From assembly GCA_043812975.1 (NCBI GenBank), contig JBDRLP010000013.1, positions 1 to 22,880 of the forward strand: DNA of 22,880 bases, given 5' to 3'. The translations under genes and the position numbers were made by a program. This DNA is from Candidatus Iainarchaeum sp. Its GTDB lineage: Archaea > Iainarchaeota > Iainarchaeia > Iainarchaeales > Iainarchaeaceae. The notes beneath the pieces were generated by a model. It was not told the DNA's origin. It was given only the letters and a program-made list of their open reading frames with translations, and did not search any database. This document shows, piece by piece, positions 2,388-18,831 of the stretch; position 1 is the stretch's first letter; every line of letters begins with the position of its first letter.

Positions 2388-3500
2388 ATGCAAATAACTG
2401 AAATCGCAAGAGAAAAAGCAATTGAAGTACTGAAAATCTGTTCAACCAAAAATGGCTTGTATGGTTCAGGCGGAAAGAATGGTTATACTTCTGTTTGGGC
2501 AAGGGATTCAATGATTTCTCTTATTGGTGCAACTTCCAATACAAAGGAATTCCAAAAGGTTTTCAAGGCAAGCATTGAAACTTTAGCAAAGTATCAGAGT
2601 GAAAAAGGCCAGATTCCTAATGATGTTGATGTTTTTGAAAAAAGAAAATTAGTAACTTTTGCGACAATAGATTCAAGTCTTTGGTTTGTTCTTGGAAACG
2701 CGATGTACAAAAAAAAGTTCGGGACTTCTCTCTGGAATAAGTACAGGAAAAATATTGAAAGAGCAATGCTTTGGGTTGAATATCAGGATGCTGGTGAAGA
2801 TTTAATGCCTGAACAACAGCCAACAAGCGATTGGCAGGATTGTTTTCCGCACAAGTATGGTCATACAATAAACACACAAGCAATGTACTATAGTGCATTG
2901 AAAGCAATAGGGAATAAAAAAATCTTCAAAGCTTTCAAGAAACAGGTTGACAAGTATTTGTGGGACGACAAGTTAGGTTATTTCATGCCCTGGCATTGGA
3001 AAGACCATGAGAAGTACAAAGAAAAAGAAGAATGGTTTGATTCTTTAGGAAACATGCTAGTGATTGTTTATGGTTTGGCAACAGAAAAGCAGGCAAAGAG
3101 TATTCTTAAAGTGGTTGAGAAGAAAAGAATTGCAAAACCTTATCCAATTAGAGTTATTGCACCTCCTATAAAAAAAGATTCAAAAGCATGGAAAGATTAT
3201 TTCAAAGCATGCCTTGCAGGAGAACCTAATAATTATATTAATGGAGGCATCTGGCCTTTTGTTGGAGGCTTTTATGTATGTGCTCTGGTGGAAGCAAAGC
3301 AGTATAAAAAAGCAGAACAAGCTCTTGAATCCTTGGCAAAGGCAAACAAGTTAGGAAAGCGTTACGAATGGGATTTTAACGAGTGGATCAATCCGGTTTC
3401 TAAGAAAGCTGGAGGCGGAAGACATCAGGCCTGGAGTGCCGGTGGTTATCTGCTTGCGTATGAAGCAGTGAAAAGGAAAAAAAACCCGCTTAAAATTTAA
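2388..3500 (+). CDS. GH100-like (alkaline/neutral invertase-related) / amylo-alpha-1,6-glucosidase-type (alpha/alpha)6 glycoside hydrolase
   Basis: YTSVWARD, TIDSSLWF, YINGGIWP, FNEW and QAWS parallel the GH100 motifs YxQVFIRD, VDSGLWW, YHNGGSWP, WPEY and QTWS. No signal peptide. Confidence 0.8.
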   Translation: MQITEIAREKAIEVLKICSTKNGLYGSGGKNGYTSVWARDSMISLIGATSNTKEFQKVFKASIETLAKYQSEKGQIPNDVDVFEKRKLVTFATIDSSLWFVLGNAMYKKKFGTSLWNKYRKNIERAMLWVEYQDAGEDLMPEQQPTSDWQDCFPHKYGHTINTQAMYYSALKAIGNKKIFKAFKKQVDKYLWDDKLGYFMPWHWKDHEKYKEKEEWFDSLGNMLVIVYGLATEKQAKSILKVVEKKRIAKPYPIRVIAPPIKKDSKAWKDYFKACLAGEPNNYINGGIWPFVGGFYVCALVEAKQYKKAEQALESLAKANKLGKRYEWDFNEWINPVSKKAGGGRHQAWSAGGYLLAYEAVKRKKNPLKI

Positions 3501-3531
3501 AATTTTTTTAATTTAATTGATTTTTTTATTT
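3501..3531. terminator. T-rich gap between convergent genes, probable oligo-T terminator
   Basis: Two T7 tracts on the + strand directly after the stop at 3500. Confidence 0.45.
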
Positions 3532-4695
3532 TTATTGTTTTTGTGAATGAAGCTTATCCTCAATCAACTTTGCAATATCAAGTGAAACTTTTTTATAATC
3601 AAAATTATTTACTGTGTGTTCTCTTGCTTGTGTTCCCATTTTTTCCCGAAGCTCATCATCACTTAAAAGTTTTAATAAATATTTTGCAAGATCATCCACA
3701 TCTGCTCTGTAAGCAAAAGTTTTTGGTTCATCAAACTTAATCTTGTGGTCTTCACCAAAACCCATGTTGGTGTAAGCCCATTCTTCTTCCAATTGGATGG
3801 TTTCCCCTACTTTTGCAAGGAAACCTGTTTCATTGTGAACAATAGTATCCTTTATACCCATTGCATTAATGCTTAACACAGGAATACCGCAGGCCATTGC
3901 TTCAACCTGAATCATGCCAAAACCTTCAATCCTGCTTGGAGCAGCATAAACATCAGCTGCACTGAGTAAAATCCTCATGCTTGTCCTTGAAAGCGGACCG
4001 TCAATATAATGAACCCGTTCATCAGGAAGCTCTTCCTTTTCAATAATATCCTGTTCGTCTTTGTAATGATACTCAGGTTCTCCGAATTCCCAGCTTTTTC
4101 CGATATATTTCCAGTTAGAGAATTCGCCGTTTATTTTTCCAAGTGCTTTCAGTACTTCCTGAAAACCTTTGCTTGTAGTATCTCCTCCTATTGTGAGAAT
4201 CATTTTGTCATTTTCTTCTACTCCAAGAATCTTTCGCATTTCCTGAACTCTCGGATCGCTTTTTGGAATAGGCTTCATTTGCTGAGTATCAATTCCAATA
4301 GGCATTGGATGCATTCTATCAGTATTAACACCATCTCTTTTGTATGTTTCCTTTACCCAGTTGCTTGTAACCATTATAAGAGGAAGTTCATTCAAAACAT
4401 CATGGTAATTTGCAACCCAGCCATCAGCATTTAACCATGGAACAGGCTGCATTCCATGTTCAATCGGATCCTGAATTATAGAAGGAGTGTCTCCCCAGAA
4501 GCCAACTCCGATTACATAATCGGGTTTGAAGATTTTGTAAAGTGCTTCTTTCTCAAAACCTGCTGTTCGGTCGCAGCCCATTACTGGATAATTATTTTCT
4601 TCTAATCCTTTGTGTAGGTAACTGCCCTGTAAACTTACTCCGTCGAGCTCAGCGGGAAAAGGGTAGAGCACAAGACTCTTAAACTTTTGATCCAT
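3532..4695 (-). CDS. Glycosyltransferase family 4 (GT-B, retaining)
   Basis: PIGIDT, KGFQEVLKAL, ADVYAAPSRIEGFGMIQVEAMACGIPV (E-x7-E motif), HNETGFL, LREKMG..AR. Confidence 0.92.
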   Translation of the reverse strand: MDQKFKSLVLYPFPAELDGVSLQGSYLHKGLEENNYPVMGCDRTAGFEKEALYKIFKPDYVIGVGFWGDTPSIIQDPIEHGMQPVPWLNADGWVANYHDVLNELPLIMVTSNWVKETYKRDGVNTDRMHPMPIGIDTQQMKPIPKSDPRVQEMRKILGVEENDKMILTIGGDTTSKGFQEVLKALGKINGEFSNWKYIGKSWEFGEPEYHYKDEQDIIEKEELPDERVHYIDGPLSRTSMRILLSAADVYAAPSRIEGFGMIQVEAMACGIPVLSINAMGIKDTIVHNETGFLAKVGETIQLEEEWAYTNMGFGEDHKIKFDEPKTFAYRADVDDLAKYLLKLLSDDELREKMGTQAREHTVNNFDYKKVSLDIAKLIEDKLHSQKQ

Positions 4696-5277
4696 TCATA
4701 ACACTTTCTTGAACGTCTCTTTATCAGAAAGACTGATGTATTCAAAGACATCCTTATCAAAATCATATACACGATTGATTAAATACTTTTTCTTTTCGAA
4801 TTCAGCGCTGTTCAGCTCGAAAACAAGTTCGGCATTCGCATTTGGCACGGCTCTGAACGGATCGTCGCGCGCTTCGTAGTCAAATACAAACAGTTCTTTG
4901 CAATTAATCAAACCTTGTTCCGCCATCTTCACAATGCCTTTGTGCGTTTCAATGTGTCTGCGATGTCCGTACTCGCCATTGGAGTTGTGCGTGTAAACAA
5001 CATCGAAGTGCTTGTCCATTGCAATAGGCTCAACACGTTTCACAACTTCGTCGAGTGATGAAAGTGGCTCTTCAGTATTTTCATCATCAATGTCTGAAAT
5101 AAATGCACGTGCGTTTAGTTCCTTGCAAACCTTGAAGAATTTGGGTTTTCTGTCAGAATCATCCTTTCTGCTTAAGGAAAGAATTGTCCATTCCCAGTCT
5201 TTCTCATGAAGAATTTTGCCACCCATCCAGATTGTTTCATCATCTGGGTGTGCTACAATCACAAGGGCTTTTACCAT
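4696..5277 (-). CDS. PIG-L/LmbE family Zn-dependent N-acetylglucosaminyl deacetylase
   Basis: VAHPDDE motif right after the likely start MVKALV (ATG 5277), and THNSNGEYGHRRH (H..H metal motif). Its TGA abuts the ATG of the GT4 gene (TGAATG). Confidence 0.9.
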   Translation of the reverse strand: MVKALVIVAHPDDETIWMGGKILHEKDWEWTILSLSRKDDSDRKPKFFKVCKELNARAFISDIDDENTEEPLSSLDEVVKRVEPIAMDKHFDVVYTHNSNGEYGHRRHIETHKGIVKMAEQGLINCKELFVFDYEARDDPFRAVPNANAELVFELNSAEFEKKKYLINRVYDFDKDVFEYISLSDKETFKKVL

Positions 5278-5330
5278 GCAATTAGTAATATATGCAAAAG
5301 AATAAATAGTCTGGTTTCGCAATAATCTCG
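5278..5330. promoter_or_regulatory. Compact divergent promoter with a single central TATA-like element
   Basis: AATAAATA at 5301-5308 lies at the midpoint between ATG 5277(-) and ATG 5331(+). Neither side has an SD motif. Confidence 0.55.
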
Positions 5331-6983
5331 ATGTCGAAGGTTTATGTAATAGGTGATCTTAACACAGATTTTTTTACGTACACTGGTTCGCGTGCGAGAT
5401 TTGGTGAAGAACAGAATGCAGACTTTACTCATTCGATTGGAGGAAACGCTACTAACTTTGCTGTTGCTGCAGCATCGCTTGGCATGGATGTAAACCTTGT
5501 TAGTATGATTGGCGAGGATTTGTTTACAAGATTTTTGAAAGCAGAGCTTGCAGAATCAAAAGTAAACAAGCTTCTTGTTAATTCGAGTTCTCCAAATGGT
5601 TTTTCAAACATTTTTGTGAAGAAGGGCGGCGAGCGAGGAATTTTTTCCAACAAAGGCGCACTCCTTGAGCTTTCATCTTCTTTGGTTTCGAAAAAAATTC
5701 TTTCAAGATTAAAGAAAGAAGATATAGTTTATTTTGGGGGTTTTTTCCATCTTCCAAAATTGAGACCTGGTTTTGTGAATCTGCTTAAAGCAATTAGAAG
5801 AAAAGAGGCAAAGGTTTTTTTTGACGCGACTTTTGATGAGTATGGGAAATGGGAAGTAAACAGTTTCCTTTCTCTTATTGATGTGTTTTTCCTGAATGAA
5901 GTTGAACTTGAACATATTACTAAAACAAAAAATAAGGGTAAAGGAATTAAGAAATTATTTTCCATGGGGGCTAATGAGATTGTTCTGAAGCTCGGTTCAA
6001 AAGGAGCTGAATACTTTTCCAGAACACAAAGTTTTGCAATGCCTGCTTTGAATGTAAAACCGGTTAATGCTACTGGTGCTGGTGATTTTTTCGATGCTGG
6101 TTTCACCTATGCGTTTCTTAATGGTTTTAGTTCCTGGAATTCACTTTTAATTTCTAACTTTGTTGCAGGGAAAAAAATTGAAAAAAAGCATTACTTTAAG
6201 CCAACTGAAAGCATGGTTAAAAATTATTTGAAAAATAAGAATTTGGTTGAGGTTGTAAAGGTTAAAGATTATAATATGGTTTCGAAACTTAGTGCTCAGC
6301 TTATTGTTGAACAACTAAATCAAAAGCCTGATTCTGTTATTTCGATTGCTGCAGGAAAAACTCCTATTGGTCTTTACAAAGAACTTGTTAAAGCATACGA
6401 AAAAAAGAATGTTAGTTTTTCAAAGGCTGTTTTTATTGAGATGGATGAATACCTTGGTCTTACTAATGAAAAAGATAGTTTTGCTTATGTGCTTCAAACC
6501 AAATTTTTGGATAAAGTGAATTTCAAAAAACAGAACATTTTTCTGTTTGATCCTTTTTCAAAAAACTTTTCCAAGGAACGTAAAAGAATTGATTCTGTTG
6601 TTCAAAGAAAACCTCTTGATTTTGTTTTGCTTGGAATCGGGGCTAATGCGCATATAGCTTACAACGAACCTTACACGAGTTTTTCTTCAGGAACACACTT
6701 TGTCAAAACTCATTTGAAAATTCTCAAAGCAAGAAAACAAAAGTTCTTGGGGAAAATTCCGAACAAGGCTTTTACTCTTGGAATAAAAACAATAAGTTCT
6801 GCCAAAAAACTTGTGCTTATTGCTAATGGAAAACCTAAGGCAAATGCAATTAAGAAAGTAGTTTCTTCAAAACCAAGTGTTAAAGTTCCGGCATCTATTC
6901 TGCAAAAGCACCCTAATTCAACAATAATAGTGGATCGCAAAGCAGGAAGTCTTCTTAAAAATTATATCAAAGGACAGAAATAA
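5331..6983 (+). CDS. Fusion of a PfkB/ribokinase-family sugar kinase (N-terminal) and a NagB-type glucosamine-6-phosphate deaminase (C-terminal)
   Basis: PfkB motifs: IGDLNTD, GGNATNFAVAAASLG, NEVE (NxxE), KLGSKGA, NATGAGDFF. NagB motifs: AAGKTP, MDEYLGL, LGIGANAHIAYNEP, TLGIKTI, PASILQKHP. Confidence 0.9.
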   Translation: MSKVYVIGDLNTDFFTYTGSRARFGEEQNADFTHSIGGNATNFAVAAASLGMDVNLVSMIGEDLFTRFLKAELAESKVNKLLVNSSSPNGFSNIFVKKGGERGIFSNKGALLELSSSLVSKKILSRLKKEDIVYFGGFFHLPKLRPGFVNLLKAIRRKEAKVFFDATFDEYGKWEVNSFLSLIDVFFLNEVELEHITKTKNKGKGIKKLFSMGANEIVLKLGSKGAEYFSRTQSFAMPALNVKPVNATGAGDFFDAGFTYAFLNGFSSWNSLLISNFVAGKKIEKKHYFKPTESMVKNYLKNKNLVEVVKVKDYNMVSKLSAQLIVEQLNQKPDSVISIAAGKTPIGLYKELVKAYEKKNVSFSKAVFIEMDEYLGLTNEKDSFAYVLQTKFLDKVNFKKQNIFLFDPFSKNFSKERKRIDSVVQRKPLDFVLLGIGANAHIAYNEPYTSFSSGTHFVKTHLKILKARKQKFLGKIPNKAFTLGIKTISSAKKLVLIANGKPKANAIKKVVSSKPSVKVPASILQKHPNSTIIVDRKAGSLLKNYIKGQK

Positions 6984-7051
6984 GGATAAAATTGTCCTTT
7001 GATAGCTATCGAAAGACCTTATTTGGATGCTTTTTAAAATGTCTTTCGATA
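6965..7051. repeat. Two tandem perfect inverted repeats built from four related 11-12 bp arms
   Basis: TATCAAAGGACA (6965-6976) pairs with TGTCCTTTGATA (6993-7004). TATCGAAAGAC (7007-7017) pairs with GTCTTTCGATA (7041-7051). Confidence 0.9.
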
Positions 7052-9223
7052 TTAGATTGAAAGCCTTGCAATTAAATAAGAAACAATTGCTTCAGCACCC
7101 TGATTTGCATTAACCCCTGTTTTTGTCAGGCCATCAAAACAACCGCCAGTTGATTCATCATAAACCATCTGATTGTGGGAGTTCTTTCCTAAAAACCAGT
7201 CAAATGCATTCCTTGCCTTTTTCAAATAATTTTGATTTCCTGTTTTTTCATATGCTTTTACAAAAGCAGTTGTCATTTCCGCTGCTTCAATTGGCTGCTG
7301 ATCAAAAAAGCCTCGGTCTTCATTTTTAACAAACCATTTTTCTTGTCCAATCGGAACAAACTTTCCTTTAATGAATAAAGTGTTAGTCAGAAAATCTATT
7401 GAGTCTTTAGCAATTTCTGCAACCTTTTTGTTTTCGAAATGGTCTTGTGCCACAAACAATGCTTCAGGTAGCCTGCTGTTCCCATAAGTGAGGTATTCCT
7501 CAAACCAGTTCCAGCCATCTGAGCTTACATTTTCATACTTTGAAACTAAAGAATCAAGCATTTCCTCTTTCATCCCGTTCCATTCTGGTATATGATTGTT
7601 TGAATTAATAATTCCAATTAGTGAGTCTGCCTGTGCCCTTGGTGAAATAATTCCTGGGCTTTGGCTTGCTGTTTTTTCCAGGATTTTTTTTGCACGTAAC
7701 CTGTAAGTTTCAGGCAGGTTGCTGTTAAGTGCAGTTCCTACTCCTAATAAAGTTCTTCCGAAAGAGTCCTCGCTTCCAACATCATCTGTAAATTCACGGT
7801 TTTCATCCAGAATATTATGAAATCTTCCGTCATTTATTTGGCATTTTTCAATAAAATTCAGGAAAGTGTCAGTAAATTTAAGCATTCTTTTCGAACCATA
7901 TTTTTCATACCCTTTTGTTGCAACAATCAATGCTCTTGCATTATCATCAAGAGTATAACCGCTTTTGATGTCTGGAGTTGAATAATCTGAAAACTGGATT
8001 ATTCCAAAATCATCAGTCATTTTTGTAAAGTGTTTAAAACTGATTCTTGGAAGTTTTGAATAGGTCTCAGCTTCTATTCCGGTGATGTCCAGAAAGGTAT
8101 TGAAATACTTTGTTGATACATTTGCCCAGGTCATTTTTCTGCTGTACTCAAAAGCATTCTTCTCAAGTTTTTTTCTTAAATCATCCGATGCCAGCATATT
8201 ATTAACCTGCTTTGCAAAACTTTTGCCGCTGTTACGCTTAACCAAAATTCCCCGGTCATCCGCCAAAACTTCCTCGTTGTATTTGTTCTTTGACGCTATT
8301 ATTGGTTTACCAGCACCCATTGCATAACTCACTGTGCCACTGCAAATCTGTTTAATGTCAAGTGATGGTGCTAAATAAACATCAGCCATTTTCAGAAATT
8401 CAGTGATTTCCTGTAAAGTTAAGTATTTGTCAACAAATTTCACATTTTTTTCAACATTATTTTTTATTGCTAATTCTTTCAGTTCCTGTCTGTAACTTTC
8501 TCCTTCATCAAGCCTGACTTTGGGGTGGGTTTGTCCAACTATTAAGTAAACAACATTCTTGTTTTGTTTTACTATTTCAGGCATTGCTCTTATCGTATGT
8601 TCAACACCTTTACCCCTGCTAAGCAAACCAAAAGTAAGCAAAATAGTTTTTCCTTCAAAACCCATTTGCTTTTTCAGTTTATCTTTTTCCTTAAAACCAA
8701 TGTTTGGTGCTCCATGAGGGATAACCACTAGTTTTTCTGCATCAACCCCATAGTCATTTGTAAGAATTTCTTTAGCATTTTCAGTCATTACAACAACCTT
8801 GTCGCTGTACTCAAAAATTTTCTGTACAACCATTTTCATTTCAGGTTCAGGATCCTCAAGGACTGTATGAAGTGTTGTAACAATTTTTTTGTTAGTTAAT
8901 TCCATTAACCTTAGGATGTGCTCCCCATGGTCGCCTCCGAACAAGCCAAATTCGTGTTGTATATTTACCAGTGAAATCCCTTTCATTGAATTGATTTTTT
9001 CAGCTGCCTTTTCATAACTTTTAATATCCTGTTCAACAAGATTGAATACTACTTTTTTCCCGTAATTGTAAAGGCTTGAATTGTCTTCATTAATTGCAAT
9101 TATTTTTGCAAGTGCTTCTTTTCCAAATTTTTTCTGTATATTGTCAGAGACATCTCTGGTAAAAGTAGCTAACCCGCATTCTCTTGGGGGGTATGATGAT
9201 AAATACAAAATCTTATTTGACAA
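7052..9223 (-). CDS. Glycosyltransferase family 4 fused to an uncharacterised C-terminal helical (probable alpha/alpha barrel) domain
   Basis: TTG start supported by GAGGTG 5 nt upstream (9229-9234). GT4 part: SYPPRECGLATFT, QHEFGLFGG, TFGLLSRGKG, SGTVSYAMGAG. C-terminal part: GYTLDDNARAL, EDSFGR, WFEEYLTYGN, FDQQPIEA, NQGAEA. Confidence 0.88.
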   Translation of the reverse strand: MSNKILYLSSYPPRECGLATFTRDVSDNIQKKFGKEALAKIIAINEDNSSLYNYGKKVVFNLVEQDIKSYEKAAEKINSMKGISLVNIQHEFGLFGGDHGEHILRLMELTNKKIVTTLHTVLEDPEPEMKMVVQKIFEYSDKVVVMTENAKEILTNDYGVDAEKLVVIPHGAPNIGFKEKDKLKKQMGFEGKTILLTFGLLSRGKGVEHTIRAMPEIVKQNKNVVYLIVGQTHPKVRLDEGESYRQELKELAIKNNVEKNVKFVDKYLTLQEITEFLKMADVYLAPSLDIKQICSGTVSYAMGAGKPIIASKNKYNEEVLADDRGILVKRNSGKSFAKQVNNMLASDDLRKKLEKNAFEYSRKMTWANVSTKYFNTFLDITGIEAETYSKLPRISFKHFTKMTDDFGIIQFSDYSTPDIKSGYTLDDNARALIVATKGYEKYGSKRMLKFTDTFLNFIEKCQINDGRFHNILDENREFTDDVGSEDSFGRTLLGVGTALNSNLPETYRLRAKKILEKTASQSPGIISPRAQADSLIGIINSNNHIPEWNGMKEEMLDSLVSKYENVSSDGWNWFEEYLTYGNSRLPEALFVAQDHFENKKVAEIAKDSIDFLTNTLFIKGKFVPIGQEKWFVKNEDRGFFDQQPIEAAEMTTAFVKAYEKTGNQNYLKKARNAFDWFLGKNSHNQMVYDESTGGCFDGLTKTGVNANQGAEAIVSYLIARLSI

Positions 9224-9318
9224 TCCCGCACCTCAAAAGTTTTGCTCAAAAAAAACTTTATTGTAATATAATTATGTGTGTTTAAATTATATTAAATGAT
9301 TTGTAAGCGAATTTGAAC

Positions 9319-10407
9319 TTATTTCAGAGAGTTTAGTATGTCTTCGAGTTTAATTTTTCTCACGGACGTGTTTGAGTCACCTTCGCCGCTGTAAATCAAA
9401 AGGTCTTTTTTGTTAAGTGACTGCATAACCGTGCTTGGAAAAGTTACATTATCATTGAAAGCTTCTTTAGTTTCCAGTTTTTTATCAGGCATAAACAAAG
9501 GATTCTTCACAGGGGTTTGTCCGACAATTTTTTCAGGGTTTTTAAGATCAAAAAGAATTGCACCTGCACTGTAAACCTTGTCAGAATCAGGATTATTCTT
9601 ATTTTTGAGCTGAACTCCGTGATAAATTTCAAGCCAGCCTTCACTTGTCTTTATCGGTACTGAACCTGCCCCTATTCTTAAATGATCCCAGCCTTGCTTT
9701 CTTGGCCCCAATAAAGGTTTATCTCTTCCCCAAAAAATTAAGTCTTTTGAATACGAAATCCAGATTCTTGGTTTGTCAAAAACCATTGTTCCTTCAGGTC
9801 TGTTCATTGCAACATAGTAACCATTAATTTTTTCAGGATAAATCACAACATCTTTATTCTGCTGTCTGAAAATTATTCCGTGTCTTTTCCAATTATTAAA
9901 ATTTTTTGTTGTTGCTAATGAAGTTGAAACCCCGCTGTAAGTAGAAACAGAAACATAAGTCATTGCGTATCTTTTTTCTTTTTTTAAGTGAGTAACTCTT
10001 GGGTCTTCTACTCCAAAATCACCGTCATCTTTCAATCCATAAAAATCAGGTTTTTTACTAATGCTTTCAACATTCATTCCTTCTTTATCCAGAATTATTT
10101 TTCTTATATGAGAAATTGTAGGAAGCCTCACAATATCATCATCTGTCCTGAAATAATCAGGGCAGAGTGTTAGTTTTTTTCTGTAAGTTTTTTCAACGTG
10201 AAGATTAATTTCTTTGGTGCCGACAAAATGCGGAGCCAGAAAAGTTTTCTCATCGTGATAAGGGGTTTCAGATATTCGTGTGAGAAGCATTATTTTCTTG
10301 TTTGGCAACCTTACCGCTGAAGGATTAAAAGCACCCCTGACCCTAAGGGTTTTTCTAGTGGGGGTAATGTCCTTTGCCTCTACAAGTAATTTAGATTCTA
10401 TTTTCAT
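9319..10407 (-). CDS. GH130 family beta-mannoside phosphorylase-like protein (5-bladed beta-propeller)
   Basis: GAFNPSAV, GVEDPRVT, NKDVVIYPEKING, NRP, IGAGSVPIKTSEGWLEIYHGV, NVTFP. Confidence 0.9.
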   Translation of the reverse strand: MKIESKLLVEAKDITPTRKTLRVRGAFNPSAVRLPNKKIMLLTRISETPYHDEKTFLAPHFVGTKEINLHVEKTYRKKLTLCPDYFRTDDDIVRLPTISHIRKIILDKEGMNVESISKKPDFYGLKDDGDFGVEDPRVTHLKKEKRYAMTYVSVSTYSGVSTSLATTKNFNNWKRHGIIFRQQNKDVVIYPEKINGYYVAMNRPEGTMVFDKPRIWISYSKDLIFWGRDKPLLGPRKQGWDHLRIGAGSVPIKTSEGWLEIYHGVQLKNKNNPDSDKVYSAGAILFDLKNPEKIVGQTPVKNPLFMPDKKLETKEAFNDNVTFPSTVMQSLNKKDLLIYSGEGDSNTSVRKIKLEDILNSLK

Positions 10408-10549: not shown

Positions 10550-13500
10550 ATGGCAGAAAACGGTATATTTGATCAGATAAAACAATTCTATTTATCCATG
10601 GAAGATAAGTATTATGATGTACTTGATAAAATAAACAAAAAAATTCCTATTCTTAAAATAACAGATGCAATTGACAAAGTTTTCCCGAGTTTCCTTTTAC
10701 TATTAATACTGCTTTTTTTATTCTTTATCGCAAGCATTGCAGTTGTTTTTATACTTGTAACTGGGTCTTCAGTAGCAACTATTCATGTTATTGATGATGA
10801 CGGGGATAGTGTTGCTGATGTTTCGGTTGAACTAACGTTTAGTGATGGTACCACCAAAGACCTCAAAACCGATGCTTTTGGACGATTTTCATTCAATTTA
10901 AATGGCGAGGAAGTTGAAATCAATATTGAGGATGAAGAATATGAATCGTTTAATGAAACAGTAACTGTTAGTGCGACTGAGGAAACGGAAATCGTTTTAA
11001 CTAAACTCGGTGCAGCTTCTTCATTATTACAAAAAGCCATTGAAGTTAAGGATTTTGATACCCAAAATCCTCTTACAGGGGCACAAATTTCATTCAGATG
11101 CAGCAATAATCCTGCTTTGGCTCCAAGTTCTATTTATAACGCAGATACTATTGAAAATGTCCTTGTTGACAGTTCATGCGGTATTTTAACAGCAACACTA
11201 AGATTATCGGGTTTTGAAGATGCAACAAGAACTCTCACAGGTCCAAAGACAATTATATTGATGAAGAAAGTATCCCAAGAAACATTTGATTCCAGAGTGA
11301 TAGTTAATGTTACTGCAGAGGATACAGGAGACGCTCTTGTAGGAATGAGTATGGTTCTTTACAAGGACGGAGAAATCCATGCACGAGGCCAATCTGATGC
11401 AACCGGAAGGAAAGTGTTTGATGTAGCTCCAGGCGAATACTATGTGAAAGTAACAGATACTAGTTTCCCAGCAGTGTATTATACGACTGAAAGTGCAAAG
11501 ATTAATGTGCAGGCAGGAGACACTGAAACAATTGCTGTAAAGATGCCTTTAATTACAAGTGATGACCCTGTTGGAAAAATTCAGCTTAAATTTGTTGATA
11601 AAAAATCAGGATCTCCAATTGAGAATGTTCAGGCTGTATTCTTTGAAGATGGTGTTTATAGTGCAGCTCCTCCGAGTAATTCAAGCTCTAAAGGCAGGGT
11701 TGACCTATTCAATGCTGATTTCAATAAATCTTATTCAGTTTCTGCATCACATCCGGATTATATATTCAAAATAACACTTGATTTGCCTGTTATTGCTTTG
11801 AACAACACTGAGGTAAAAGAAATTGAACTTGTCAAGGCTGAATCTCCTGCAAAATTTGGTGACATTATTGTACTGGTCCAAAATGGAGAGGAAACCCCTA
11901 TAAAGGATGCTCAAGTGCACTTGTTTGACAAGGACATTGAATTCTCTATTTTGACAGGAACAACCAATTCTGAGGGAAAAATTACTTTTAAGAATATGCC
12001 TGTAGGTCTTTTCAAAGCTGTTGCAAGTGCAACTGGTCAGGACGGAGAATCACCTTATACTCAGCTGAACTCAGGAGTAAATTTGCTTCTGGAAATAACT
12101 TTGATTTTGCAGAAGGGTACAATAGAGGTTGAGGTTATTGATGGATTTGGAAGGCCGGTTGAAGGTGCAAATGTAAAGTTCGTTGATGAGTTTGCAGGCA
12201 GGCTTACTGATGAAGTGACTGATTCGGAAGGAAAGATAGATCCTCAGGAATTTTATTGGAATTTAAAGCCGTACCTTGAAGTTACAAAAAGCGGTTACTT
12301 GCTATCAAGAACCTCGGCATATGACCTTGCTCCGAAGTCAACGACTGAAGTACAGGTAGTGCTTCGTGAGACAGAGTATATTGACCAGTTAACATGTGTA
12401 AGCAATCAGGACTTGTGTATAGGTCTTGGGTTTAATGCTATTATTGAAAATACTCCGAGAAGAAAAGTAGCAACAATGTTTGAAGAAAATAAACATTACA
12501 TATTGTTGTTTGATGTTTACGTGGGAAAAGATATGGAGGATGTTACTGCTGTTGTAAGAACTGGTTTAGAAGCAGACATGACTGCAGGAGCGTCTAATAT
12601 TGTCATTGAGGGCGGTGCAGGTGCTGGAGAAGCTTCATTTATAAGAGATGACTCTTACAACACTCAGGACAATTATGTTGTAGCAAGTCCCACTAATAAT
12701 GATGGAAAACAGGCTTTGGTTTCATTTGGTGATCTTGCAGCTGGACTTTATAGCTTTGAGGTTGAGATTTTCATAAAACCAAACCAGGAGGATGATGCTG
12801 AAATTGAGATAAGGTATGGGGTTACAGGAGTTTCTGGTAGTACTGACCTTTACGTACCTAATGAAGATGAACTAATATTTTTGTTCTTCCAGTTGAATGA
12901 GCCAATAAGCTGTGATCCTGAAAATGCAGACTGCCCTAATTTTATTTTCAGCGGTTCAATAAGACCTGATGTTGAAGGCGGTGTAGCAAGAGCTCTTGAC
13001 CCTGATGGTATACAAGAGTTAACAATAGGAACTGAGTATGAAATAATACTCAATATAACTTATCTGAATCAAGAGGTGGGTGTGCTTAGTAATGTGTCAA
13101 TGGATGCAACCCATAATTCTAATGCGCTTACAGTAAGTCCTAATCCATTGAGCATTGGCTCCTTGTTGCCGAATTCTCTTACAAGTATAGCATTTACAGT
13201 AACCCCTGAACTTTCTACTGGATTAACAAGCATAGATTTCGAATTAAGTGAAAACCTGCCCGAAAATAGTATTAGTTATGAGTTCAGTATTGCTGAACAG
13301 GAAGCAATGAGTATAAGTGCACACCCCAGACAAATAATAGAGAATACTAGTACCTTTGTCGGAATTGAAGTTACAAGCCCACAGGATAATCCTGTTTCAG
13401 GTGCTGTTGTTGAATGGGCAAGCACTTGGGATGGATTTGACGGAACGAATGTTCTTCCATATACAGATGCGCTTGGAATTACCGGAGTTACTATTCCGCC

Positions 13501-16500
13501 AAGGGATAAAGGCGACCATATTTACTTCAAGGCAACAAGCCCGTACTACAAAGAATCTGATGTACTGGAAGTAAAAGTTGTTGACAGTTCTTCCTTTGAG
13601 CTTTCTCCATTCAGCTTTGCATGTGTTTCAATTACTGATGGTGGAGGATCAGCGTTACAGGATGCTGGTTTAGGTTTTGAAGGAGAATATTTAATCCCTG
13701 TTATCCATGGGAATCAGGCAATATTCGAAATAAACACTTTGAACTGCCCTAAAAATGTTAAAGTTGCCTTGAATGTTGGTACTTCCTCAAGTAATGCTGC
13801 CGGTAGTGATAGTGGAAGAATAACTCTGCGTGACGGTGCAAATATTGAGCTGGGTAATGATTGTGCAAGAACAGAAGAAGGCCCTATTCCTTGTGATGCT
13901 AGAACACTTTCAACTACTGATTCTTTAACAGTAAAAGCACATGCAAATAAACTATTAGGAGAATATGATGTTGAAATAAGGCTAATGTATGAAGGAGACC
14001 CTGGTTATTATCTTACTAATATTGTAAGAATAATTGTTGAGCGTAGTGCAGGAGAACAAACATTCTCAATAAGCAAACCTTACTTTAATATTTTTAATGG
14101 TCCCGATACTGCGGTAATAACAAATAATTCTTTTGTGGATATTGATAACTTCTGGTACCCTAAAGTTGATTTGCCGGCTGACATTATAAGAGAATACAAT
14201 ATTGATCCTGACAGGTATGCAGATATTCCTTCTTCTGCAACAGTAGATTGGACTGTAACACTTGTAGGTACTAAAACCAATACTTCATACTTAACAGTTG
14301 AAAGTGAAGCTGAACCTGCATGTATTGATCATAGGTCTGTTACCTGCCTTGACTGCACATGGTTGTGTTCACAATCTTCAAACACTACTTCGTGTGAAGC
14401 TCCGGCAGGAACTTGCCAGAGAAATGGTATAACATTAAAAATCCCAAATCCTGCGGATGTTACTGCAATAAAGCTTGAAGAAGTATGGTTCGCTCCAGGA
14501 GGAGGCGGAGAAATATTTATTGTTAAATCAGACGGAAGTAAGACACGTATTTACAATAAGACTCCAGAAGGCTGTTCTGCTTCACCAATAGGCAGTGAAA
14601 TTCTTGATTCTGCTTTTGATTTAACTGACATCCTTATTGTTGACGGAGCACAGACCGGAGTTACTTTCGATGTAAAAGCATCTACGGGTGCCGGTTGTAC
14701 TGAACACGCTTATGTTGGCGCAAAAATAAGTATTGACAGTGGCTCAGAACCAATTAACTATACTTTTTCAGACTCAAAAACCATTTCTATAAGCATTGAT
14801 AATGCTGCAGATTCTTATGATCTTGGAACTGTTGACCTTTCAGAAATACCTCCTCTTGACCCAAGCAGTGGTGACTTCATAATTCCAAAAGTAACCACTA
14901 CAAACCCTATGTTTGATGTCTGGCTTGAACAGGGAACAACTTCCCTTACTGTAAAAGGTTTATTTATAGGGTCTACAGAGTATGTAAAATCAAAAGATAT
15001 TGATATTACTGCGAGCAATATCAGCCTGATTGGAAGAGATTATGGTTTGCTGATGGTTGAAGATTATGTTTTACCAACCGGAGACACTGCTGTTGAAACT
15101 TCTCCTTTCAGTTATACGATAACTGTTGCTAATGATGCTGGAGAAGAACTACCAAGACCAAGTACAGCTGAATTTGTAATTCCATATGATGGTGAGGAAC
15201 ATGAATTAACAGGCACTGCCTTGACAGGTGTTGCACATACAATAGAATTACCTTCACTTAGTGGTACAATAGTTTCTTACAGCATTGAAGCTCCTGAAGG
15301 TTCACCAGTGGTTGTTTATTTCAAGGAGGGTGATACAGGAGATCCTGCTTCTGTAATTTTGGGTTCAACTCCGCCAACCAAAGTCTTTGCAAGAACTGCG
15401 TATACGCAGGAATCATCTAACAGTGTTCAAGCAATAATGCTTATTGATACATCAGGAAGTATGGATAATGAATGGGATACTGTATGTGCTGTTTCGGATA
15501 AAATAGAAGCAAACCTGAAAGCCGCAGGATTCGATGTTGATTTCAGTATTTATGGAATGGAAGTAGAAAGAGGATGTGCTACTGGAAAAGTTCAATGGCC
15601 TGCTGACTTCAATATAATTGCTGATGATCCTGTTACTATGGTTACTGCAGACTTTTATGATCATAAAGAAGAAGCATGGGGTGTACTTGGTTACGAGCTT
15701 ATAGATAAATTTGACTGGGATTCAGATTCAAGAAAAATGATTGTAATAATTAGTGACAGTGACCCTACAGGTGTAGGTAGAGAAACAGAATGTGCATTCC
15801 TGTGGTTTGGTTGTACAACCAGGAGTATGTGGAGAGATGGAATTGAAACAAAGGTTGTTAACCAGCTTGTTAAAAAAGCAAATGATAATGGTGTTTCATT
15901 ATTCTTTATTTCGCCTATTGATATGGAATCAAAAACAATGAATAAGATTAGTGATCCTTTGAAGAATGATGCTGAAGAGCTGATGGAATGGGCTGCAAGG
16001 CAGACAGGCGGAGCATGGCAACAATATTCTGCGGAGCCGGACACTGATTTCAGTGTTCAGAGATTTGCATTACTTATAGAAAGATCTCTATATCCTAAAG
16101 ATACAGAATACTTCCATGTGAGAGTTGATGCCGGAAAAGATAATGTGTGTTACGGAGCGAATGATATTACAGGGGTAACAGGTCCAAACGCAATTCCAAA
16201 AATAATTACTTCATGGAGCCGGGATGCTGTTTTAGTAGATTCCTGTGATAAGTATGTGTTTGGCAGCAGAGCTACAGAAAATAATGAAGCCTTTGCTTAT
16301 TGTGATGCTGCTCAGTTTAGTACTGAGATTTTAAAGAAACTTGAAAGATATGAAGATGAAGTAATTGGCAGTGGAGACAGTACTTATGCTTCTGAATATC
16401 TGAATTTTGAGTCTTATTTAATCCGTGATGGTTACACAGCTGATTTTGTTGCTGATTACGGTGAATATATCCAGTCAACTTTCTTTGAAGGCACCACTAC

Positions 16501-17707
16501 TCTGGATGGCATATTCAGCGAAGACAGAATTACTTTTGAAGGTCTTGAGCTTGATGAAGCATTACCTGTAACAGGACTTTATGCAGTAACAATTACTCTT
16601 GATTATGATAATGGCAATCAATTATTTTTCGTTGGTTCCGGAGGAAGCCAACAACTGAATGTCAGGGTCAATGTTAACTTTACAAAAATCCAGGAACTCT
16701 CAAACGAAAACCAGTTTTATTACCTGCCTTTTGATGGGGTTGTAGGAAGAGAAGTACTTCCTTCAGGATCTGTAGTGCTAAAAAGAGATGGTTATGGGGT
16801 TGGTTTCACAGGGGATATTTCAGAATTAGGTTTGTATGATGTCGGCAGTTCAGGAAGCCCTGTGATTGATGCTGTTCAGGGTACTCCTCTTGTGCCTTCA
16901 GTTCAAATTATCAAATCAACAGACTTTAAGGTACTTAATAATACTTCAAGAGGCAATCTTTTAGGCATAATTCCTCATCAGGGAGGCAAATCTATTTACT
17001 ATACTCCAAGTTATCCAGTTCCGATTTTAATGAAAGCAGAAAATATCAGTGAGAATAATCGTACAGATATTGCAGCGTTCCTTGTACTAAGAAAGACCGG
17101 TACAATTGTTGATATTGAAACTTCTTCATTAACCGAGTGGGATGCATTCTCCTCAAACCTGACACCATCATGCACGGTATTCAGTGGTGAAAATGCTTTA
17201 GAATTCAGAAACTATGAGGACGGGCTACTTGGAGATAGTGAAACAACTTGTGATAATCCAAATGATCCTAATGATTCTTTTGGATTTGAATGGGCAGACA
17301 CGGAACCTAAAGGGGTTGTTTCCAATAAAACAATATTCTATGTTCCGGATAATTCAAGTTATTCAATTACAAATGCATGTACTAATATTGCTGAAAAAGC
17401 AAGAGTAAGCTTTATTAGTCATGGGGCTACAATTAGTACTGATAGTTCTTCTGGTACTAATTTAGATTTAAGAAGTAATATTATGGGTTCAAGTGTTCAG
17501 AGCGTAACTTCTTTAGCAGATATTTTCCAGCTTATTGAGGATGAGTATATATGTGTTTCAACAGAAGAATCAGGGGTTGCGAATGAACAATCCACAAAGT
17601 TCTGGTGGAACCCTAAAAAGGTATTCAATGATCTGGCAATAAGCCAGAAAGTATCTATCTGTTCGCTAGAGATATGCAGCGAAAGTCCTGAAGCTTGTGC
17701 AAGTTAA
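10550..17707 (+). CDS. Giant (2385 aa) N-terminally membrane-anchored surface protein: carboxypeptidase-regulatory/prealbumin-like Ig repeats, Cys-rich segment, vWA domain
   Basis: TM helix at about aa 47-70. Repeated V.D..G.PV..A.V...TD..G units (e.g. VIDGFGRPVEGANVKF...TDSEG). MIDAS motif LIDTSGSMD at about aa 1633 with a downstream VIISDSDP. Acidic and S/T-rich. The ORF is uninterrupted for 7.1 kb. Confidence 0.85.
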   Translation: MAENGIFDQIKQFYLSMEDKYYDVLDKINKKIPILKITDAIDKVFPSFLLLLILLFLFFIASIAVVFILVTGSSVATIHVIDDDGDSVADVSVELTFSDGTTKDLKTDAFGRFSFNLNGEEVEINIEDEEYESFNETVTVSATEETEIVLTKLGAASSLLQKAIEVKDFDTQNPLTGAQISFRCSNNPALAPSSIYNADTIENVLVDSSCGILTATLRLSGFEDATRTLTGPKTIILMKKVSQETFDSRVIVNVTAEDTGDALVGMSMVLYKDGEIHARGQSDATGRKVFDVAPGEYYVKVTDTSFPAVYYTTESAKINVQAGDTETIAVKMPLITSDDPVGKIQLKFVDKKSGSPIENVQAVFFEDGVYSAAPPSNSSSKGRVDLFNADFNKSYSVSASHPDYIFKITLDLPVIALNNTEVKEIELVKAESPAKFGDIIVLVQNGEETPIKDAQVHLFDKDIEFSILTGTTNSEGKITFKNMPVGLFKAVASATGQDGESPYTQLNSGVNLLLEITLILQKGTIEVEVIDGFGRPVEGANVKFVDEFAGRLTDEVTDSEGKIDPQEFYWNLKPYLEVTKSGYLLSRTSAYDLAPKSTTEVQVVLRETEYIDQLTCVSNQDLCIGLGFNAIIENTPRRKVATMFEENKHYILLFDVYVGKDMEDVTAVVRTGLEADMTAGASNIVIEGGAGAGEASFIRDDSYNTQDNYVVASPTNNDGKQALVSFGDLAAGLYSFEVEIFIKPNQEDDAEIEIRYGVTGVSGSTDLYVPNEDELIFLFFQLNEPISCDPENADCPNFIFSGSIRPDVEGGVARALDPDGIQELTIGTEYEIILNITYLNQEVGVLSNVSMDATHNSNALTVSPNPLSIGSLLPNSLTSIAFTVTPELSTGLTSIDFELSENLPENSISYEFSIAEQEAMSISAHPRQIIENTSTFVGIEVTSPQDNPVSGAVVEWASTWDGFDGTNVLPYTDALGITGVTIPPRDKGDHIYFKATSPYYKESDVLEVKVVDSSSFELSPFSFACVSITDGGGSALQDAGLGFEGEYLIPVIHGNQAIFEINTLNCPKNVKVALNVGTSSSNAAGSDSGRITLRDGANIELGNDCARTEEGPIPCDARTLSTTDSLTVKAHANKLLGEYDVEIRLMYEGDPGYYLTNIVRIIVERSAGEQTFSISKPYFNIFNGPDTAVITNNSFVDIDNFWYPKVDLPADIIREYNIDPDRYADIPSSATVDWTVTLVGTKTNTSYLTVESEAEPACIDHRSVTCLDCTWLCSQSSNTTSCEAPAGTCQRNGITLKIPNPADVTAIKLEEVWFAPGGGGEIFIVKSDGSKTRIYNKTPEGCSASPIGSEILDSAFDLTDILIVDGAQTGVTFDVKASTGAGCTEHAYVGAKISIDSGSEPINYTFSDSKTISISIDNAADSYDLGTVDLSEIPPLDPSSGDFIIPKVTTTNPMFDVWLEQGTTSLTVKGLFIGSTEYVKSKDIDITASNISLIGRDYGLLMVEDYVLPTGDTAVETSPFSYTITVANDAGEELPRPSTAEFVIPYDGEEHELTGTALTGVAHTIELPSLSGTIVSYSIEAPEGSPVVVYFKEGDTGDPASVILGSTPPTKVFARTAYTQESSNSVQAIMLIDTSGSMDNEWDTVCAVSDKIEANLKAAGFDVDFSIYGMEVERGCATGKVQWPADFNIIADDPVTMVTADFYDHKEEAWGVLGYELIDKFDWDSDSRKMIVIISDSDPTGVGRETECAFLWFGCTTRSMWRDGIETKVVNQLVKKANDNGVSLFFISPIDMESKTMNKISDPLKNDAEELMEWAARQTGGAWQQYSAEPDTDFSVQRFALLIERSLYPKDTEYFHVRVDAGKDNVCYGANDITGVTGPNAIPKIITSWSRDAVLVDSCDKYVFGSRATENNEAFAYCDAAQFSTEILKKLERYEDEVIGSGDSTYASEYLNFESYLIRDGYTADFVADYGEYIQSTFFEGTTTLDGIFSEDRITFEGLELDEALPVTGLYAVTITLDYDNGNQLFFVGSGGSQQLNVRVNVNFTKIQELSNENQFYYLPFDGVVGREVLPSGSVVLKRDGYGVGFTGDISELGLYDVGSSGSPVIDAVQGTPLVPSVQIIKSTDFKVLNNTSRGNLLGIIPHQGGKSIYYTPSYPVPILMKAENISENNRTDIAAFLVLRKTGTIVDIETSSLTEWDAFSSNLTPSCTVFSGENALEFRNYEDGLLGDSETTCDNPNDPNDSFGFEWADTEPKGVVSNKTIFYVPDNSSYSITNACTNIAEKARVSFISHGATISTDSSSGTNLDLRSNIMGSSVQSVTSLADIFQLIEDEYICVSTEESGVANEQSTKFWWNPKKVFNDLAISQKVSICSLEICSESPEACAS

Positions 17708-18057: not shown

Positions 18058-18831
18058 TTACTGGCAATTCGCATCTGCGAAATCCTGGCCTTTCAAAGTG
18101 AGATTGTGTTTAAAGTAATAATCATTACCGAACTCGAAGGTTAGAGTTACAGCTCCTAGAGTATTTCCAATGAATAAGTATGGTGCTGTGCTTCTCAGAA
18201 GATCCTTCTGGTAAATATCGGTTGTTTTTCCTGCTTTAGCTTCAAAATCATAAGCTGCGTTGGTTGTGATTGAATCATCTGCACTTTCAGATTTTGATTT
18301 TAGAGTAATTCTATCAGCATAACTAAAATCACTTGTTCCTGTGTTCTTAAACTTAACAATCTTTACTGCTAAACCTCTTTCTCCCTCAAAATCCAGTGTA
18401 CACCAGAAGGTTAAATTCTCAACTTTAATATCTTCCAGCAATTCTGCGTCTGGTTCAGGCTCTGCTTCACATTCGCATGAAGAATTACAAACCTGACTTG
18501 AACTACAATCTGAATTAGATTCACAATCCTCTCCATCTTCTACATCCCCATTACCACAAACCGGATTAGTATTTGTGTTAGAATTATCATTATTTTGTGT
18601 ATCTGTATTAGAATTATCATTGTTAGTATTTGTGTTAGAATTGCCTGTAGTATCAGTAATAGTGGTATTAGGGCTAGTGTCAATTAAAGGAGTAGCATCA
18701 ACAACATTTGCTGGTTCATTTGTAACAAAAAATAGTACAAATCCAGTGACTGTTACAACCCCGATTAGTGCTACAAATAAAAACACGAGTCCGACTACAA
18801 GCACTAATGCAATGATTTTATCTCTGTCCAT
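18058..18831 (-). CDS. Membrane-anchored protein with a Thr/Asn-rich linker, a Cys-rich (CGNG..E..E.C) module and a C-terminal beta-rich domain
   Basis: Likely start MDRDKIIALV at ATG 18831, with a TATA box about 25 nt upstream. Long hydrophobic N-terminus. VCGNGDVEDGEDCESNSDCSSSQVCNSSCEC resembles Myxococcus-type cysteine-rich repeats. Confidence 0.78.
   Translation of the reverse strand: MDRDKIIALVLVVGLVFLFVALIGVVTVTGFVLFFVTNEPANVVDATPLIDTSPNTTITDTTGNSNTNTNNDNSNTDTQNNDNSNTNTNPVCGNGDVEDGEDCESNSDCSSSQVCNSSCECEAEPEPDAELLEDIKVENLTFWCTLDFEGERGLAVKIVKFKNTGTSDFSYADRITLKSKSESADDSITTNAAYDFEAKAGKTTDIYQKDLLRSTAPYLFIGNTLGAVTLTFEFGNDYYFKHNLTLKGQDFADANCQ
18566..18642. repeat. In-frame imperfect tandem repeat (30 + 27 bp units) encoding the NSNTxT(Q)NND linker
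   Basis: TTAGTATTTGTGTTAGAATT occurs at 18566-18585 and 18623-18642. TTAGAATTATCATT occurs at 18578-18591 and 18608-18621. Confidence 0.85.

Follow-up and report, generated by a model that had tools for sequence, protein, structure and literature searches.

A 22,880 nt stretch of Candidatus Iainarchaeum sp. (contig JBDRLP010000013.1, 35% G+C; the whole stretch is called the window here) carries a sugar locus of six genes, which encode a glycoside hydrolase (GH) resembling family GH100, a family 4 glycosyltransferase (GT4a), a PIG-L/LmbE-family zinc deacetylase, a PfkB kinase–NagB deaminase fusion, a second GT4-like protein (GT4b) and a GH130 enzyme. The hydrolase, GT4a and PIG-L are the near-universal core trio of this module, and kinase/NagB and GT4b/GH130 are accessory pairs. 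We give about an even chance to the reading that the locus runs a cytoplasmic make-and-break cycle of an α-linked glucosamine (GlcN) glycoside that is wired into glycolysis. In such a cycle, GT4a would put N-acetylglucosamine (GlcNAc) on a small soluble acceptor X to give α-GlcNAc-X, the co-translated PIG-L would deacetylate this product to α-GlcN-X and thereby make the step irreversible, and the convergent GH100-like inverting α-glycosidase would later split GlcN-X; the PfkB domain would phosphorylate the freed hexosamine (or hexose), and the fused NagB would turn GlcN-6-phosphate (GlcN-6-P) into fructose-6-phosphate (Fru-6-P) and ammonia. A GH130_4-type phosphorylase would interconvert short β-1,2-mannosides and mannose-1-phosphate (Man-1-P) beside the atypical GT4b, and this pair probably acts on a mannosylated version of the GlcN glycoside, decorating it or turning it over, or else handles a separate mannoside pool. 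The glycoside could serve as a reserve, an osmolyte or a nitrogen/carbon buffer. This reading builds on the observed gene order and its conservation, catalytic motifs, folds and fusions, from which we infer the substrates, the flux direction and the physiological role.

The six genes fall into four transcription units whose strands alternate along the window, and co-regulation is therefore not to be assumed, which made synteny the test of the module. The database holds 1646 hydrolase relatives of near length, the best 120 of which belong to Diapherotrites/Iainarchaeota, Woese-, Pace- and Nanoarchaeota and Patescibacteria. The synteny sample comprised the best 80 of 337 hydrolase-related places, with one genome per species and up to 10 kb fetched on each side, and occurrences were counted by tblastn together with our own clustering of open reading frames (ORFs). 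The six families recurred in 37–68 of these 80 hydrolase-anchored loci: GT4a in 68, PIG-L in 64, GT4b in 41, GH130 in 40, PfkB in 39 and NagB in 37. Among the 66 loci with at least 2.5 kb downstream, the corresponding counts were 62, 59, 36, 35, 38 and 36, and among the 23 loci with at least 8 kb on both sides they were 23, 21, 14, 15, 16 and 15. As a control, 7/9 other window genes recurred by tblastn in 0–1 locus of the 80, the remaining two being the giant protein at 10550–17707 (matches in 9 loci) and the 296–1837 protein (matched in L001 only), and the clustering of the six families is far beyond chance. The initial annotation, made from the window alone, had proposed a survey of DPANN archaea and bacteria of the candidate phyla radiation (CPR) as a check and had named missing co-occurrence elsewhere as a refutation; this refutation failed, as the co-occurrence found here was wide, with the trio present in Iainarchaeota, Woese-, Pace- and Nanoarchaeota and Patescibacteria. 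The six-gene cluster it described thus holds in that the families recur together, but they do so as a core trio with two facultative pairs rather than as one unit. Within the trio, PIG-L lies ≤130 bp from GT4a in 61/62 loci, mostly with an overlap of 4 or 0 bases (−4 to 0), and GT4a stands tail-to-tail with the hydrolase at ≤300 bp in 52/68 loci. An ORF of 343–345 residues with no Pfam match sits between the hydrolase and GT4a in three loci (L014, L041 and L065).

In the hydrolase tree, the complete set of six genes belongs to Iainarchaeota clade 1, made up of the window and 16 loci; in a second clade of Iainarchaeota (14 loci) the trio is joined by the kinase–NagB fusion, with GT4b and GH130 absent. 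In the 26 Woese/Pace/Nanoarchaeota loci, NagB and the kinase (PfkB or ROK) accompany the trio as separate genes, often together with GH130 and GT4b, and a CPR clade (13 loci; 100% support in the Shimodaira–Hasegawa-like approximate likelihood ratio test, SH-aLRT) holds a GH130-like gene, GT4b, the hydrolase, GT4a and PIG-L. The CPR loci (L028, L043, L044, L049, L052, L056, L069–L072, L074, L075 and L078) are nested among archaeal DPANN clades, and the whole gene order accompanies their hydrolase copies. The nesting suggests that the module was exchanged between the two domains. Eight loci (L018, L035, L038, L047, L062, L067, L068 and L072) have titles naming Thaumarchaeota, Chloroflexota, Methanosarcinales or Gammaproteobacteria, and their hydrolases and gene order nest within the DPANN or CPR clades; genome labels of metagenome-assembled loci may be wrong, and these titles are possibly binning or labelling errors. 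No description of the module was found in the searched literature, which omits most subscription journals, also when compatible solutes of the glucosamine type were looked for; intracellular GH130s are noted in a CPR genome in a part of PMC7143001. The module is apparently an undescribed, widely conserved new combination of known enzyme kinds.

The hydrolase (370 aa) is a single-domain (α/α)6 barrel, modelled by AlphaFold2 with a predicted local distance difference test score (pLDDT) of 89 and a predicted template modelling score (pTM) of 0.92. Its top Foldseek matches in the PDB are the GH100 invertases InvB, InvA and AtCINV (E ~1e-14, query TM-score (TMq) 0.73–0.79, 14–18% identity), followed by enzymes of GH78, GH176 and GH63. 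R39-D40, D95, D148, D151 and E332 are invariant in 23 hydrolase sequences, and in a profile alignment E332 falls on the Glu of InvA PEY, D151 on the Asp of InvB MID and D95 on VDS. The invertase-like character assigned by the initial annotation is therefore borne out by a GH100-like fold with the Asp/Glu/Asp triad of clan GH-G, in which D151, E332 and D95 are presumably acid, base and fixer, names that follow in part the numbering of InvA. GH37, GH63 and GH100 make up clan GH-G of inverting α-glucosidases, which use one Asp as acid, a Glu as base and another Asp as 'fixer', and the GH100 'invertases' are α-glucosidases acting on sucrose, as parts of PMC13671375 set out. The GH100 profile (PF12899) was matched at 54.2 bits against a cut-off of 23.6, only over residues 217–360 (profile positions 290–431 of 435), the GDE_C score in Pfam was slightly above the GH100 score, and the protein is 70–90 residues shorter than GH100 enzymes. 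A sister family inside clan GH-G or close to it describes the protein better than GH100 itself; it is predicted to be an inverting α-gluco-type glycosidase, and we propose that it acts as an α-glucosaminide hydrolase. Longer relatives, mostly flavobacterial and ~694 aa in length, have an N-terminal sucrose-6F-phosphate-phosphatase domain (S6PP, HAD-IIB) and a C-terminal hydrolase domain that is 26–30% identical over the whole query, with all motif residues common to both. Carriers of this fusion are Flavobacteriaceae including Algibacter, Polaribacter, Mariniflexile and Seonamhaeicola (proteins P0122–P0240), and P0121 has a Ser/Thr protein kinase domain instead of S6PP as the fusion partner of its hydrolase homologue.

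GT4a (387 aa; Glycos_transf_1, PF00534, 98.6 bits) keeps the EX7E motif, with E257 kept in at least 90% and E265 invariant among 42 sequences, and GGDxTSKG is also conserved. The best PDB matches of the single sequence were BshA (2jjm, 3mbo) and MshA, and those of the profile were the sucrose-phosphate synthase (SPS) Tll1590 (1.8e-20, top), BshA, MshA, PimB, GlgM and TreT; that SPS, BshA and MshA are soluble GT4s acting on small acceptors agrees with the small-acceptor role ascribed to GT4a. Its N-domain has no Pfam match and is acidic (isoelectric point (pI) 5.1 in the window, median 6.0 over the 42 sequences). We propose that GT4a is a retaining transferase making α-GlcNAc-X from UDP-GlcNAc.

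PIG-L scored 46.9 bits against the PF02585 gathering cut-off of 28.2 and 27.9 against a cut-off of 224 for the MshB model of NCBIfam. AHPDDE, H97 and H105-x-R-H108 (HxRH) are invariant in 44 sequences, with residue roles that are presumably those of the MshB counterparts, and the retained zinc and catalytic motifs, together with translational coupling to GT4a, uphold its annotation as a deacetylase, which we propose converts GlcNAc-X to GlcN-X. The TTG start of the window ORF is probably over-extended, because PIG-L orthologues begin at the Met giving MVKALVIVAHPDDE, and the true start is likely the ATG at 5277, which gives 193 aa. Fused PIG-L forms were considered as a clue to X and proved uninformative, the 11 longer relatives being joined to GT2, a NodS-like methyltransferase or GT4.

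In the MshA/MshB, BshA/BshB and PIG-A/PIG-L pairs, GT4 acts first and PIG-L follows. A retaining GT4 gives an α-linkage and clan GH-G splits α-glucosides, so the pairing of GT4a with the hydrolase is stereochemically consistent, and the presence of an intact Leloir-type transferase with degradative enzymes speaks for a compound that the cell both makes and turns over, more than for catabolism alone. Since a GT4 and PIG-L pair opens both the bacillithiol and the mycothiol pathways, and BshA and MshA are the best single-sequence matches of GT4a, biosynthesis of a low-molecular-weight thiol of either type was weighed. We regard it as extremely improbable: neither the window nor the recurrent neighbour families include a cysteine ligase, the trio has as its third conserved member a glycosidase to which NagB is linked, and the equivalog cut-offs are missed.

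In the kinase–NagB fusion, PfkB occupies residues 1–290 and the NagB-type deaminase residues 307–543. The PfkB domain (PF00294, 146.5 bits) has a legible NATGAGD with the GAGD anion-hole motif and reaches none of the PfkB equivalogs of NCBIfam, the best being ribokinase at 117 vs 300. The NagB domain matched Glucosamine_iso at 72.4 bits and the nagB models at 182–200 bits, under their curated cut-offs (TIGR00502, 182.0 vs 236.9; the separate orthologue of L055 passes at 249.3). Its best PDB match is B. subtilis NagB (6e-44), every match down to 3.6e-21 is a NagB, and the stretches MDEY and GIGANAHIAYNEP, presumably catalytic, are legible. The fusion occurs in 24/80 loci (13 in Iainarchaeota clade 1, 10 in clade 2 and one other), and a ROK or PfkB kinase with NagB as separate genes in 10/26 Woese-type loci. 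At L045:9305–11095 (+), one uninterrupted ORF of 596 residues joins a NagB-type deaminase (residues 1–226, nagB 229 bits) through a short linker to the hydrolase. The link to NagB that the initial annotation had drawn thus gains from a direct fusion in one genome and from the recurrence of kinase and NagB in three different architectures. The NagB-like neighbours were also considered as 6-phosphogluconolactonases, a candidate that was rejected since 7/7 separate copies tested score higher as nagB than as pgl. A ROK kinase adjoins or neighbours PIG-L in the place held elsewhere by PfkB, and the PfkB domain is therefore more likely a hexose(amine) kinase than a phosphofructokinase; the latter assignment, prompted by the order PfkB then aldolase and triose-phosphate isomerase (TIM) in some Woese-type loci, is ranked below it. 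The proposed route runs from GlcN or another hexose to its 6-phosphate and on to Fru-6-P and NH3.

Next to the trio and the kinase–NagB gene, GT4b (723 aa) consists of a GT4-like part (residues 1–385; Glycos_transf_1, 85.5 bits) and a C-terminal toroid (residues 388–723, 336 residues). Its annotation as a second GT4 stands as far as the Glycos_transf_1 domain goes, but EX7E is absent, an invariant Q292 and Y300 replacing the two Glu in 37 sequences (with Tyr replaced by Asp in some CPR copies), so that it may not be an ordinary nucleotide-sugar transferase; GT4b is GT4-like in fold and may not use a nucleotide sugar. The fused 'helical domain' of the initial annotation is real and can be narrowed to an (α/α)6 toroid, modelled confidently with a pLDDT of 93. 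Foldseek matches this C-domain best to the uncharacterised protein 7tem (2e-14) and next to members of the AGE/cellobiose-2-epimerase superfamily (TMq ~0.65–0.74, 11–14% identity). AGE/cellobiose 2-epimerases require catalytic histidines, and the domain has many invariant Asp/Glu and no invariant His among 37 sequences, which ruled out a sugar 2-epimerase. A relationship to the hydrolase was likewise rejected, as tblastn with the C-domain matched GT4b orthologues only. In 43/81 sources GT4b was found in its fused form, whose median length is 734 aa. ESM Atlas look-ups, made alongside these analyses, returned only generic 'glycosyltransferase' clusters.

GH130 (362 aa; PF04041, 131.6 bits) has Lin0857 as its best PDB match (1.3e-43, full length). 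Its assignment to β-mannosides agrees with the family and can be narrowed to those β-1,2-mannoside phosphorylases whose lid suits short substrates: R44, E134, D135, K185, R203 and R244 align to R47, E136, D137, K184, R202 and R242 of Uhgb_MS, and the lid region 50–104 aligns to Lin0857 52–108. According to parts of PMC12814180, R47 and E136 of Uhgb_MS are β-1,2 determinants, K184, R202 and R242 bind phosphate, and the subfamily has a lid loop. P206 and N211 of Uhgb_MS, which tune transferase activity, are not conserved in the window protein, which scored 235.6 against a cut-off of 550 for NF050092 and 61.8 for the β-1,2-mannosidase model. We predict from these residues that it is of the Lin0857/Uhgb_MS (GH130_4) type, a β-1,2-mannoside phosphorylase for short substrates. 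GT4b adjoins GH130 in 27/34 loci holding both; the GH130-like genes of CPR are a different subtype whose best score is also β-1,2-mannobiose phosphorylase, and they too lie beside GT4b.

Beyond the six families, the neighbourhoods of the 80 loci recurrently contain a ROK kinase (10 loci), PGK and GAPDH (9 each), TIM and class I aldolase (8 each), a bifunctional phosphoglucose/phosphomannose isomerase (PGI/PMI; 7, the L027 copy passing the TIGR02128 cut-off) and a cupin PMI-like protein (7). TrmB regulators, pyruvate:ferredoxin oxidoreductase (POR) subunits and PfkB kinases also recur near the module. A route leading from mannose phosphates into Fru-6-P would be consistent with the neighbouring PGI/PMI and cupin PMI genes. 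In agreement with the initial annotation, none of the 15 window ORFs matched a transporter or flippase family; nor did any of the 43 recurrent neighbour families submitted to Pfam, one of which is a membrane protein of unknown function (DUF63). With glycolytic neighbours and no recurrent transporter or nucleotide-sugar gene, the module is therefore placed in central carbon metabolism and not in envelope-synthesis loci. The claim of the initial annotation that signal peptides are lacking was also sustained by a Kyte–Doolittle test (19-residue window, threshold 1.6), a crude measure used in place of a signal-peptide predictor, in which 5/6 proteins had no window reaching 1.6; PIG-L peaks at 1.63, only within its probably over-extended TTG-start part. 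By the same test, the flanking proteins at 296–1837, 1827–2333, 10550–17707 and 18058–18867 do have hydrophobic segments.

These neighbourhoods bear on two other explanations. In the first, which we consider rather unlikely, the locus serves salvage or catabolism of host glycans: PIG-L would deacetylate free GlcNAc or an oligosaccharide, the kinase and NagB would feed Fru-6-P, GH130 would phosphorolyse imported β-mannosides and the hydrolase would trim α-sugars, with the GT4s belonging to unrelated glycoconjugate synthesis or acting in reverse. Several points count for salvage: DPANN and CPR organisms are thought to be host-dependent; a PIG-L enzyme, a kinase and a deaminase are what the archaeal GlcNAc route employs; the few PDB matches of the PIG-L profile include Dac structures; and glycolysis genes are neighbours. 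GH130 clusters elsewhere are also catabolic or salvage systems, as described in parts of PMC4264767, but the Thermoanaerobacter GH130 cluster treated there has an ABC transporter and none recurs here. Salvage is further disfavoured by the coupling of PIG-L to GT4a in all but one of the 62 loci, by the EX7E that GT4a keeps, and by a hydrolase fold that is that of α-glucosidases, not β-glucosaminidases.

In the second, a membrane or surface glycoconjugate would be made, with GT4a and PIG-L forming a GlcN-lipid (of PIG-A/PIG-L or GlcN-phosphatidylglycerol type), GT4b adding mannose and the hydrolases remodelling the product. The PIG-L family is named after a GlcNAc-phosphatidylinositol deacetylase, GT4b matches the PimA/PimB structures, and a giant surface protein is encoded next door (tblastn matches in 9 loci, 7 in one ORF cluster). 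GT4a also weakly matches the GlcNAc-phosphatidylglycerol synthase model, but at 55.7 bits vs a cut-off of 480. No flippase, transporter or membrane segment accompanies the enzymes, such close links to NagB, sugar kinases, PGI/PMI and glycolysis genes would be out of place in envelope synthesis, and the acidic acceptor domain of GT4a speaks weakly in the same direction, so that we hold a glycoconjugate to be improbable.

Returning to the proposed glucosamine glycoside cycle, several points weigh against it or narrow it. The GlcNAc donor is suggested by the partnership with PIG-L and a weak similarity to BshA and MshA, and those are the sole grounds for it; GT4a misses the NCBIfam equivalog cut-offs for both (BshA, 71.6 vs 273.7; MshA, 54.3 vs 462.5), and PIG-L is only remotely like the solved MshB and Dac structures (E ~0.002–0.015). 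No genes for UDP-GlcNAc or GDP-mannose (GDP-Man) synthesis recur in the examined neighbourhoods. A phosphorylated acceptor is hinted at by the S6PP-fused hydrolase relatives, but the recurrent gene families of the loci include no HAD/S6PP-type phosphatase; two metallophosphoesterase families do recur, in 7 and 3 loci. The NagB–hydrolase fusion is the sole case among the 80 loci, a sample that is skewed toward close relatives and whose ORFs were called with our own simple script. Finally, the 13 loci of the CPR clade have no kinase or NagB nearby, and recycling to Fru-6-P is therefore not universal. The chemical order GT4, PIG-L, hydrolase and kinase–NagB put forward by the initial annotation, once narrowed and divided into a trio and two pairs, is the reading that motifs, folds, synteny and fusions support best, except for its last step in CPR.

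As for X, three partly independent leads weakly suggest a fructose-type acceptor: the hydrolase is GH100-like in fold, some of its relatives are fused to S6PP, and the GT4a profile matches an SPS best. The amino-sucrose and the storage or osmolyte role put forward by the initial annotation are conjectural. In the most specific form of the proposal, which we think quite unlikely, DPANN and CPR would share a horizontally exchanged cycle of GlcN-α-1,2-β-fructose or its 6-phosphate, made by an SPS-like GT4, with deacetylation replacing dephosphorylation, and cleaved by a GH100-like α-glucosaminidase; many lineages would link it to a nucleotide-sparing, 'mannogen-like' reserve, a β-1,2-mannoside pool handled by GH130 and the EX7E-less GT4, which may use Man-1-P. 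The same leads (Tll1590 as best profile match of GT4a at 1.8e-20, GH100 as nearest hydrolase fold, and flavobacterial relatives with 26–30% identity fused to S6PP domains) would suit a non-amino solute cycle of sucrose or glucoside type, in which GT4a would be SPS-like, the hydrolase invertase-like and PIG-L would have another role. Such a cycle appears decidedly improbable, as almost every locus has a PIG-L with intact motifs that is co-translated with GT4a, NagB is a fusion partner or a neighbour, no S6PP/HAD phosphatase recurs in the loci, and GT4a reaches 33 bits in the SPS model against a cut-off of 576.

If the cycle of GlcN-α-1,2-β-fructose is true, it would represent an undescribed carbon/nitrogen reserve or osmolyte in organisms thought to be almost without biosynthetic metabolism. 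DPANN and CPR are regarded as metabolically minimal symbionts, to which a module of five to six genes conserved across both radiations would add an endogenous metabolite cycle, and it would assign a function to several highly conserved 'hypothetical' carbohydrate genes, the hydrolase family alone having 337 relatives in species-representative genomes. Two enzymological oddities come with it: a short GH100-like sister family, and an EX7E-less GT4 fused to an uncharacterised toroid beside a β-1,2-mannoside phosphorylase.

The features of the locus are collected in Table 1; all 15 window ORFs were screened against Pfam and NCBIfam, which agreed with every domain call of the initial annotation for the six genes, whose ORF coordinates were exact. 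Judged from its sequence and position, the divergent spacer is likely a shared promoter region.

Table 1. Genes and intergenic region of the six-gene locus in the window
Feature	Position	Strand	Family matches or basis
GH100-like (α/α)6 hydrolase	2388–3500	+	Pfam GDE_C / Glyco_hydro_100 / MGH1-like, C-terminal half only
GT4a, GT-B glycosyltransferase	3532–4695	−	Glycos_transf_1
PIG-L/LmbE-family zinc deacetylase	4696–5322	−	PIG-L (PF02585)
AT-rich divergent spacer, 53 bp, between PIG-L (start at 5277) and kinase–NagB gene	5278–5330	.	Sequence read
PfkB kinase–NagB deaminase fusion	5331–6983	+	PfkB + Glucosamine_iso
GT4b, GT4-like domain–toroid fusion	7052–9223	−	Glycos_transf_1 + weak α-toroid matches
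GH130 enzyme	9319–10407	−	Glyco_hydro_130

Elsewhere in the window, a giant protein of 2385 residues (10550–17707, +) is encoded divergently from GH130 and has one N-terminal membrane segment with CarboxypepD_reg, Big_1, SpaA and weak macroglobulin-type domains; its relatives are placed in the same way in at least 6 Iainarchaeota loci. On the other side of the locus, a secreted protein (296–1837, +) combines DUF4430 with a prenyltransferase/squalene-cyclase-like (weakly TED-like) α-toroid and is followed by a small membrane protein of no family (1827–2333, +); L001, the closest relative, is the only locus in which these two recur. Taken with the macroglobulin-like domains found in the giant protein, they hint at a surface α-2-macroglobulin-like system. 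A transaldolase/fructose-6-phosphate aldolase homologue (20709–21527, −; 272 aa) scored 182.7 bits vs a cut-off of 245.95, and since it matches the 213-position fsa/talC model in two stretches, it therefore has an insertion. A tRNA scan of the window found none.

Compared with known systems, the module shares with MshA/MshB and BshA/BshB a soluble GT4 followed by a PIG-L/LmbE zinc deacetylase acting on its GlcNAc-glycoside, with BshA and MshA near GT4a. It differs from them in missing the equivalog scores and having no cysteine ligase, and it adds an α-glycosidase, NagB and ties to glycolysis, which imply turnover rather than a thiol end product. In the Thermococcus-type GlcNAc/chitobiose route, deacetylation by Dac of the PIG-L family is followed by a kinase and then a deaminase to yield Fru-6-P. 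Deacetylation before phosphorylation is common to this route and the proposed cycle, and Dac is a remote profile match of PIG-L; in the module, however, the kinase is PfkB or ROK, the deaminase is NagB-type, the deacetylase is operonic with a glycosyltransferase, and no chitinase or β-glucosaminidase is present.

The GH130 systems (Teth514_1786–1789, Lin0857, Uhgb_MS) and mannogen cycling in Leishmania resemble the accessory pair in β-1,2 determinants, phosphate binders, a GT4 neighbour and a cytosolic role. In parts of PMC4264767, GH130 of Thermoanaerobacter Teth514_1786–1789 adjoins a GT4, and in parts of PMC12814180 GH130_4/6 enzymes also build β-1,2-mannosides from Man-1-P or GDP-Man. In contrast to those systems, neither an ABC transporter nor a Man-1-P guanylyltransferase belongs to the cluster, its GH130 stays at 235.6 vs 550 in the equivalog model, and its GT4 partner is without EX7E and has an extra toroid. 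With the sucrose/mannosylfructose cycle (SPS or mannosylfructose-phosphate synthase (MFPS), the HAD-IIB sucrose-phosphate phosphatase (SPP) and GH100), the module shares a GT4 synthase and a cytoplasmic single-domain (α/α)6 inverting α-glucosidase, with GH100 as the nearest hydrolase fold, SPS as the top profile match of GT4a and S6PP-fused hydrolase relatives in Flavobacteriaceae. In contrast to that cycle, it has a deacetylase in the committing place of the phosphatase, a shorter hydrolase (14–18% identity to GH100) and NagB attached.

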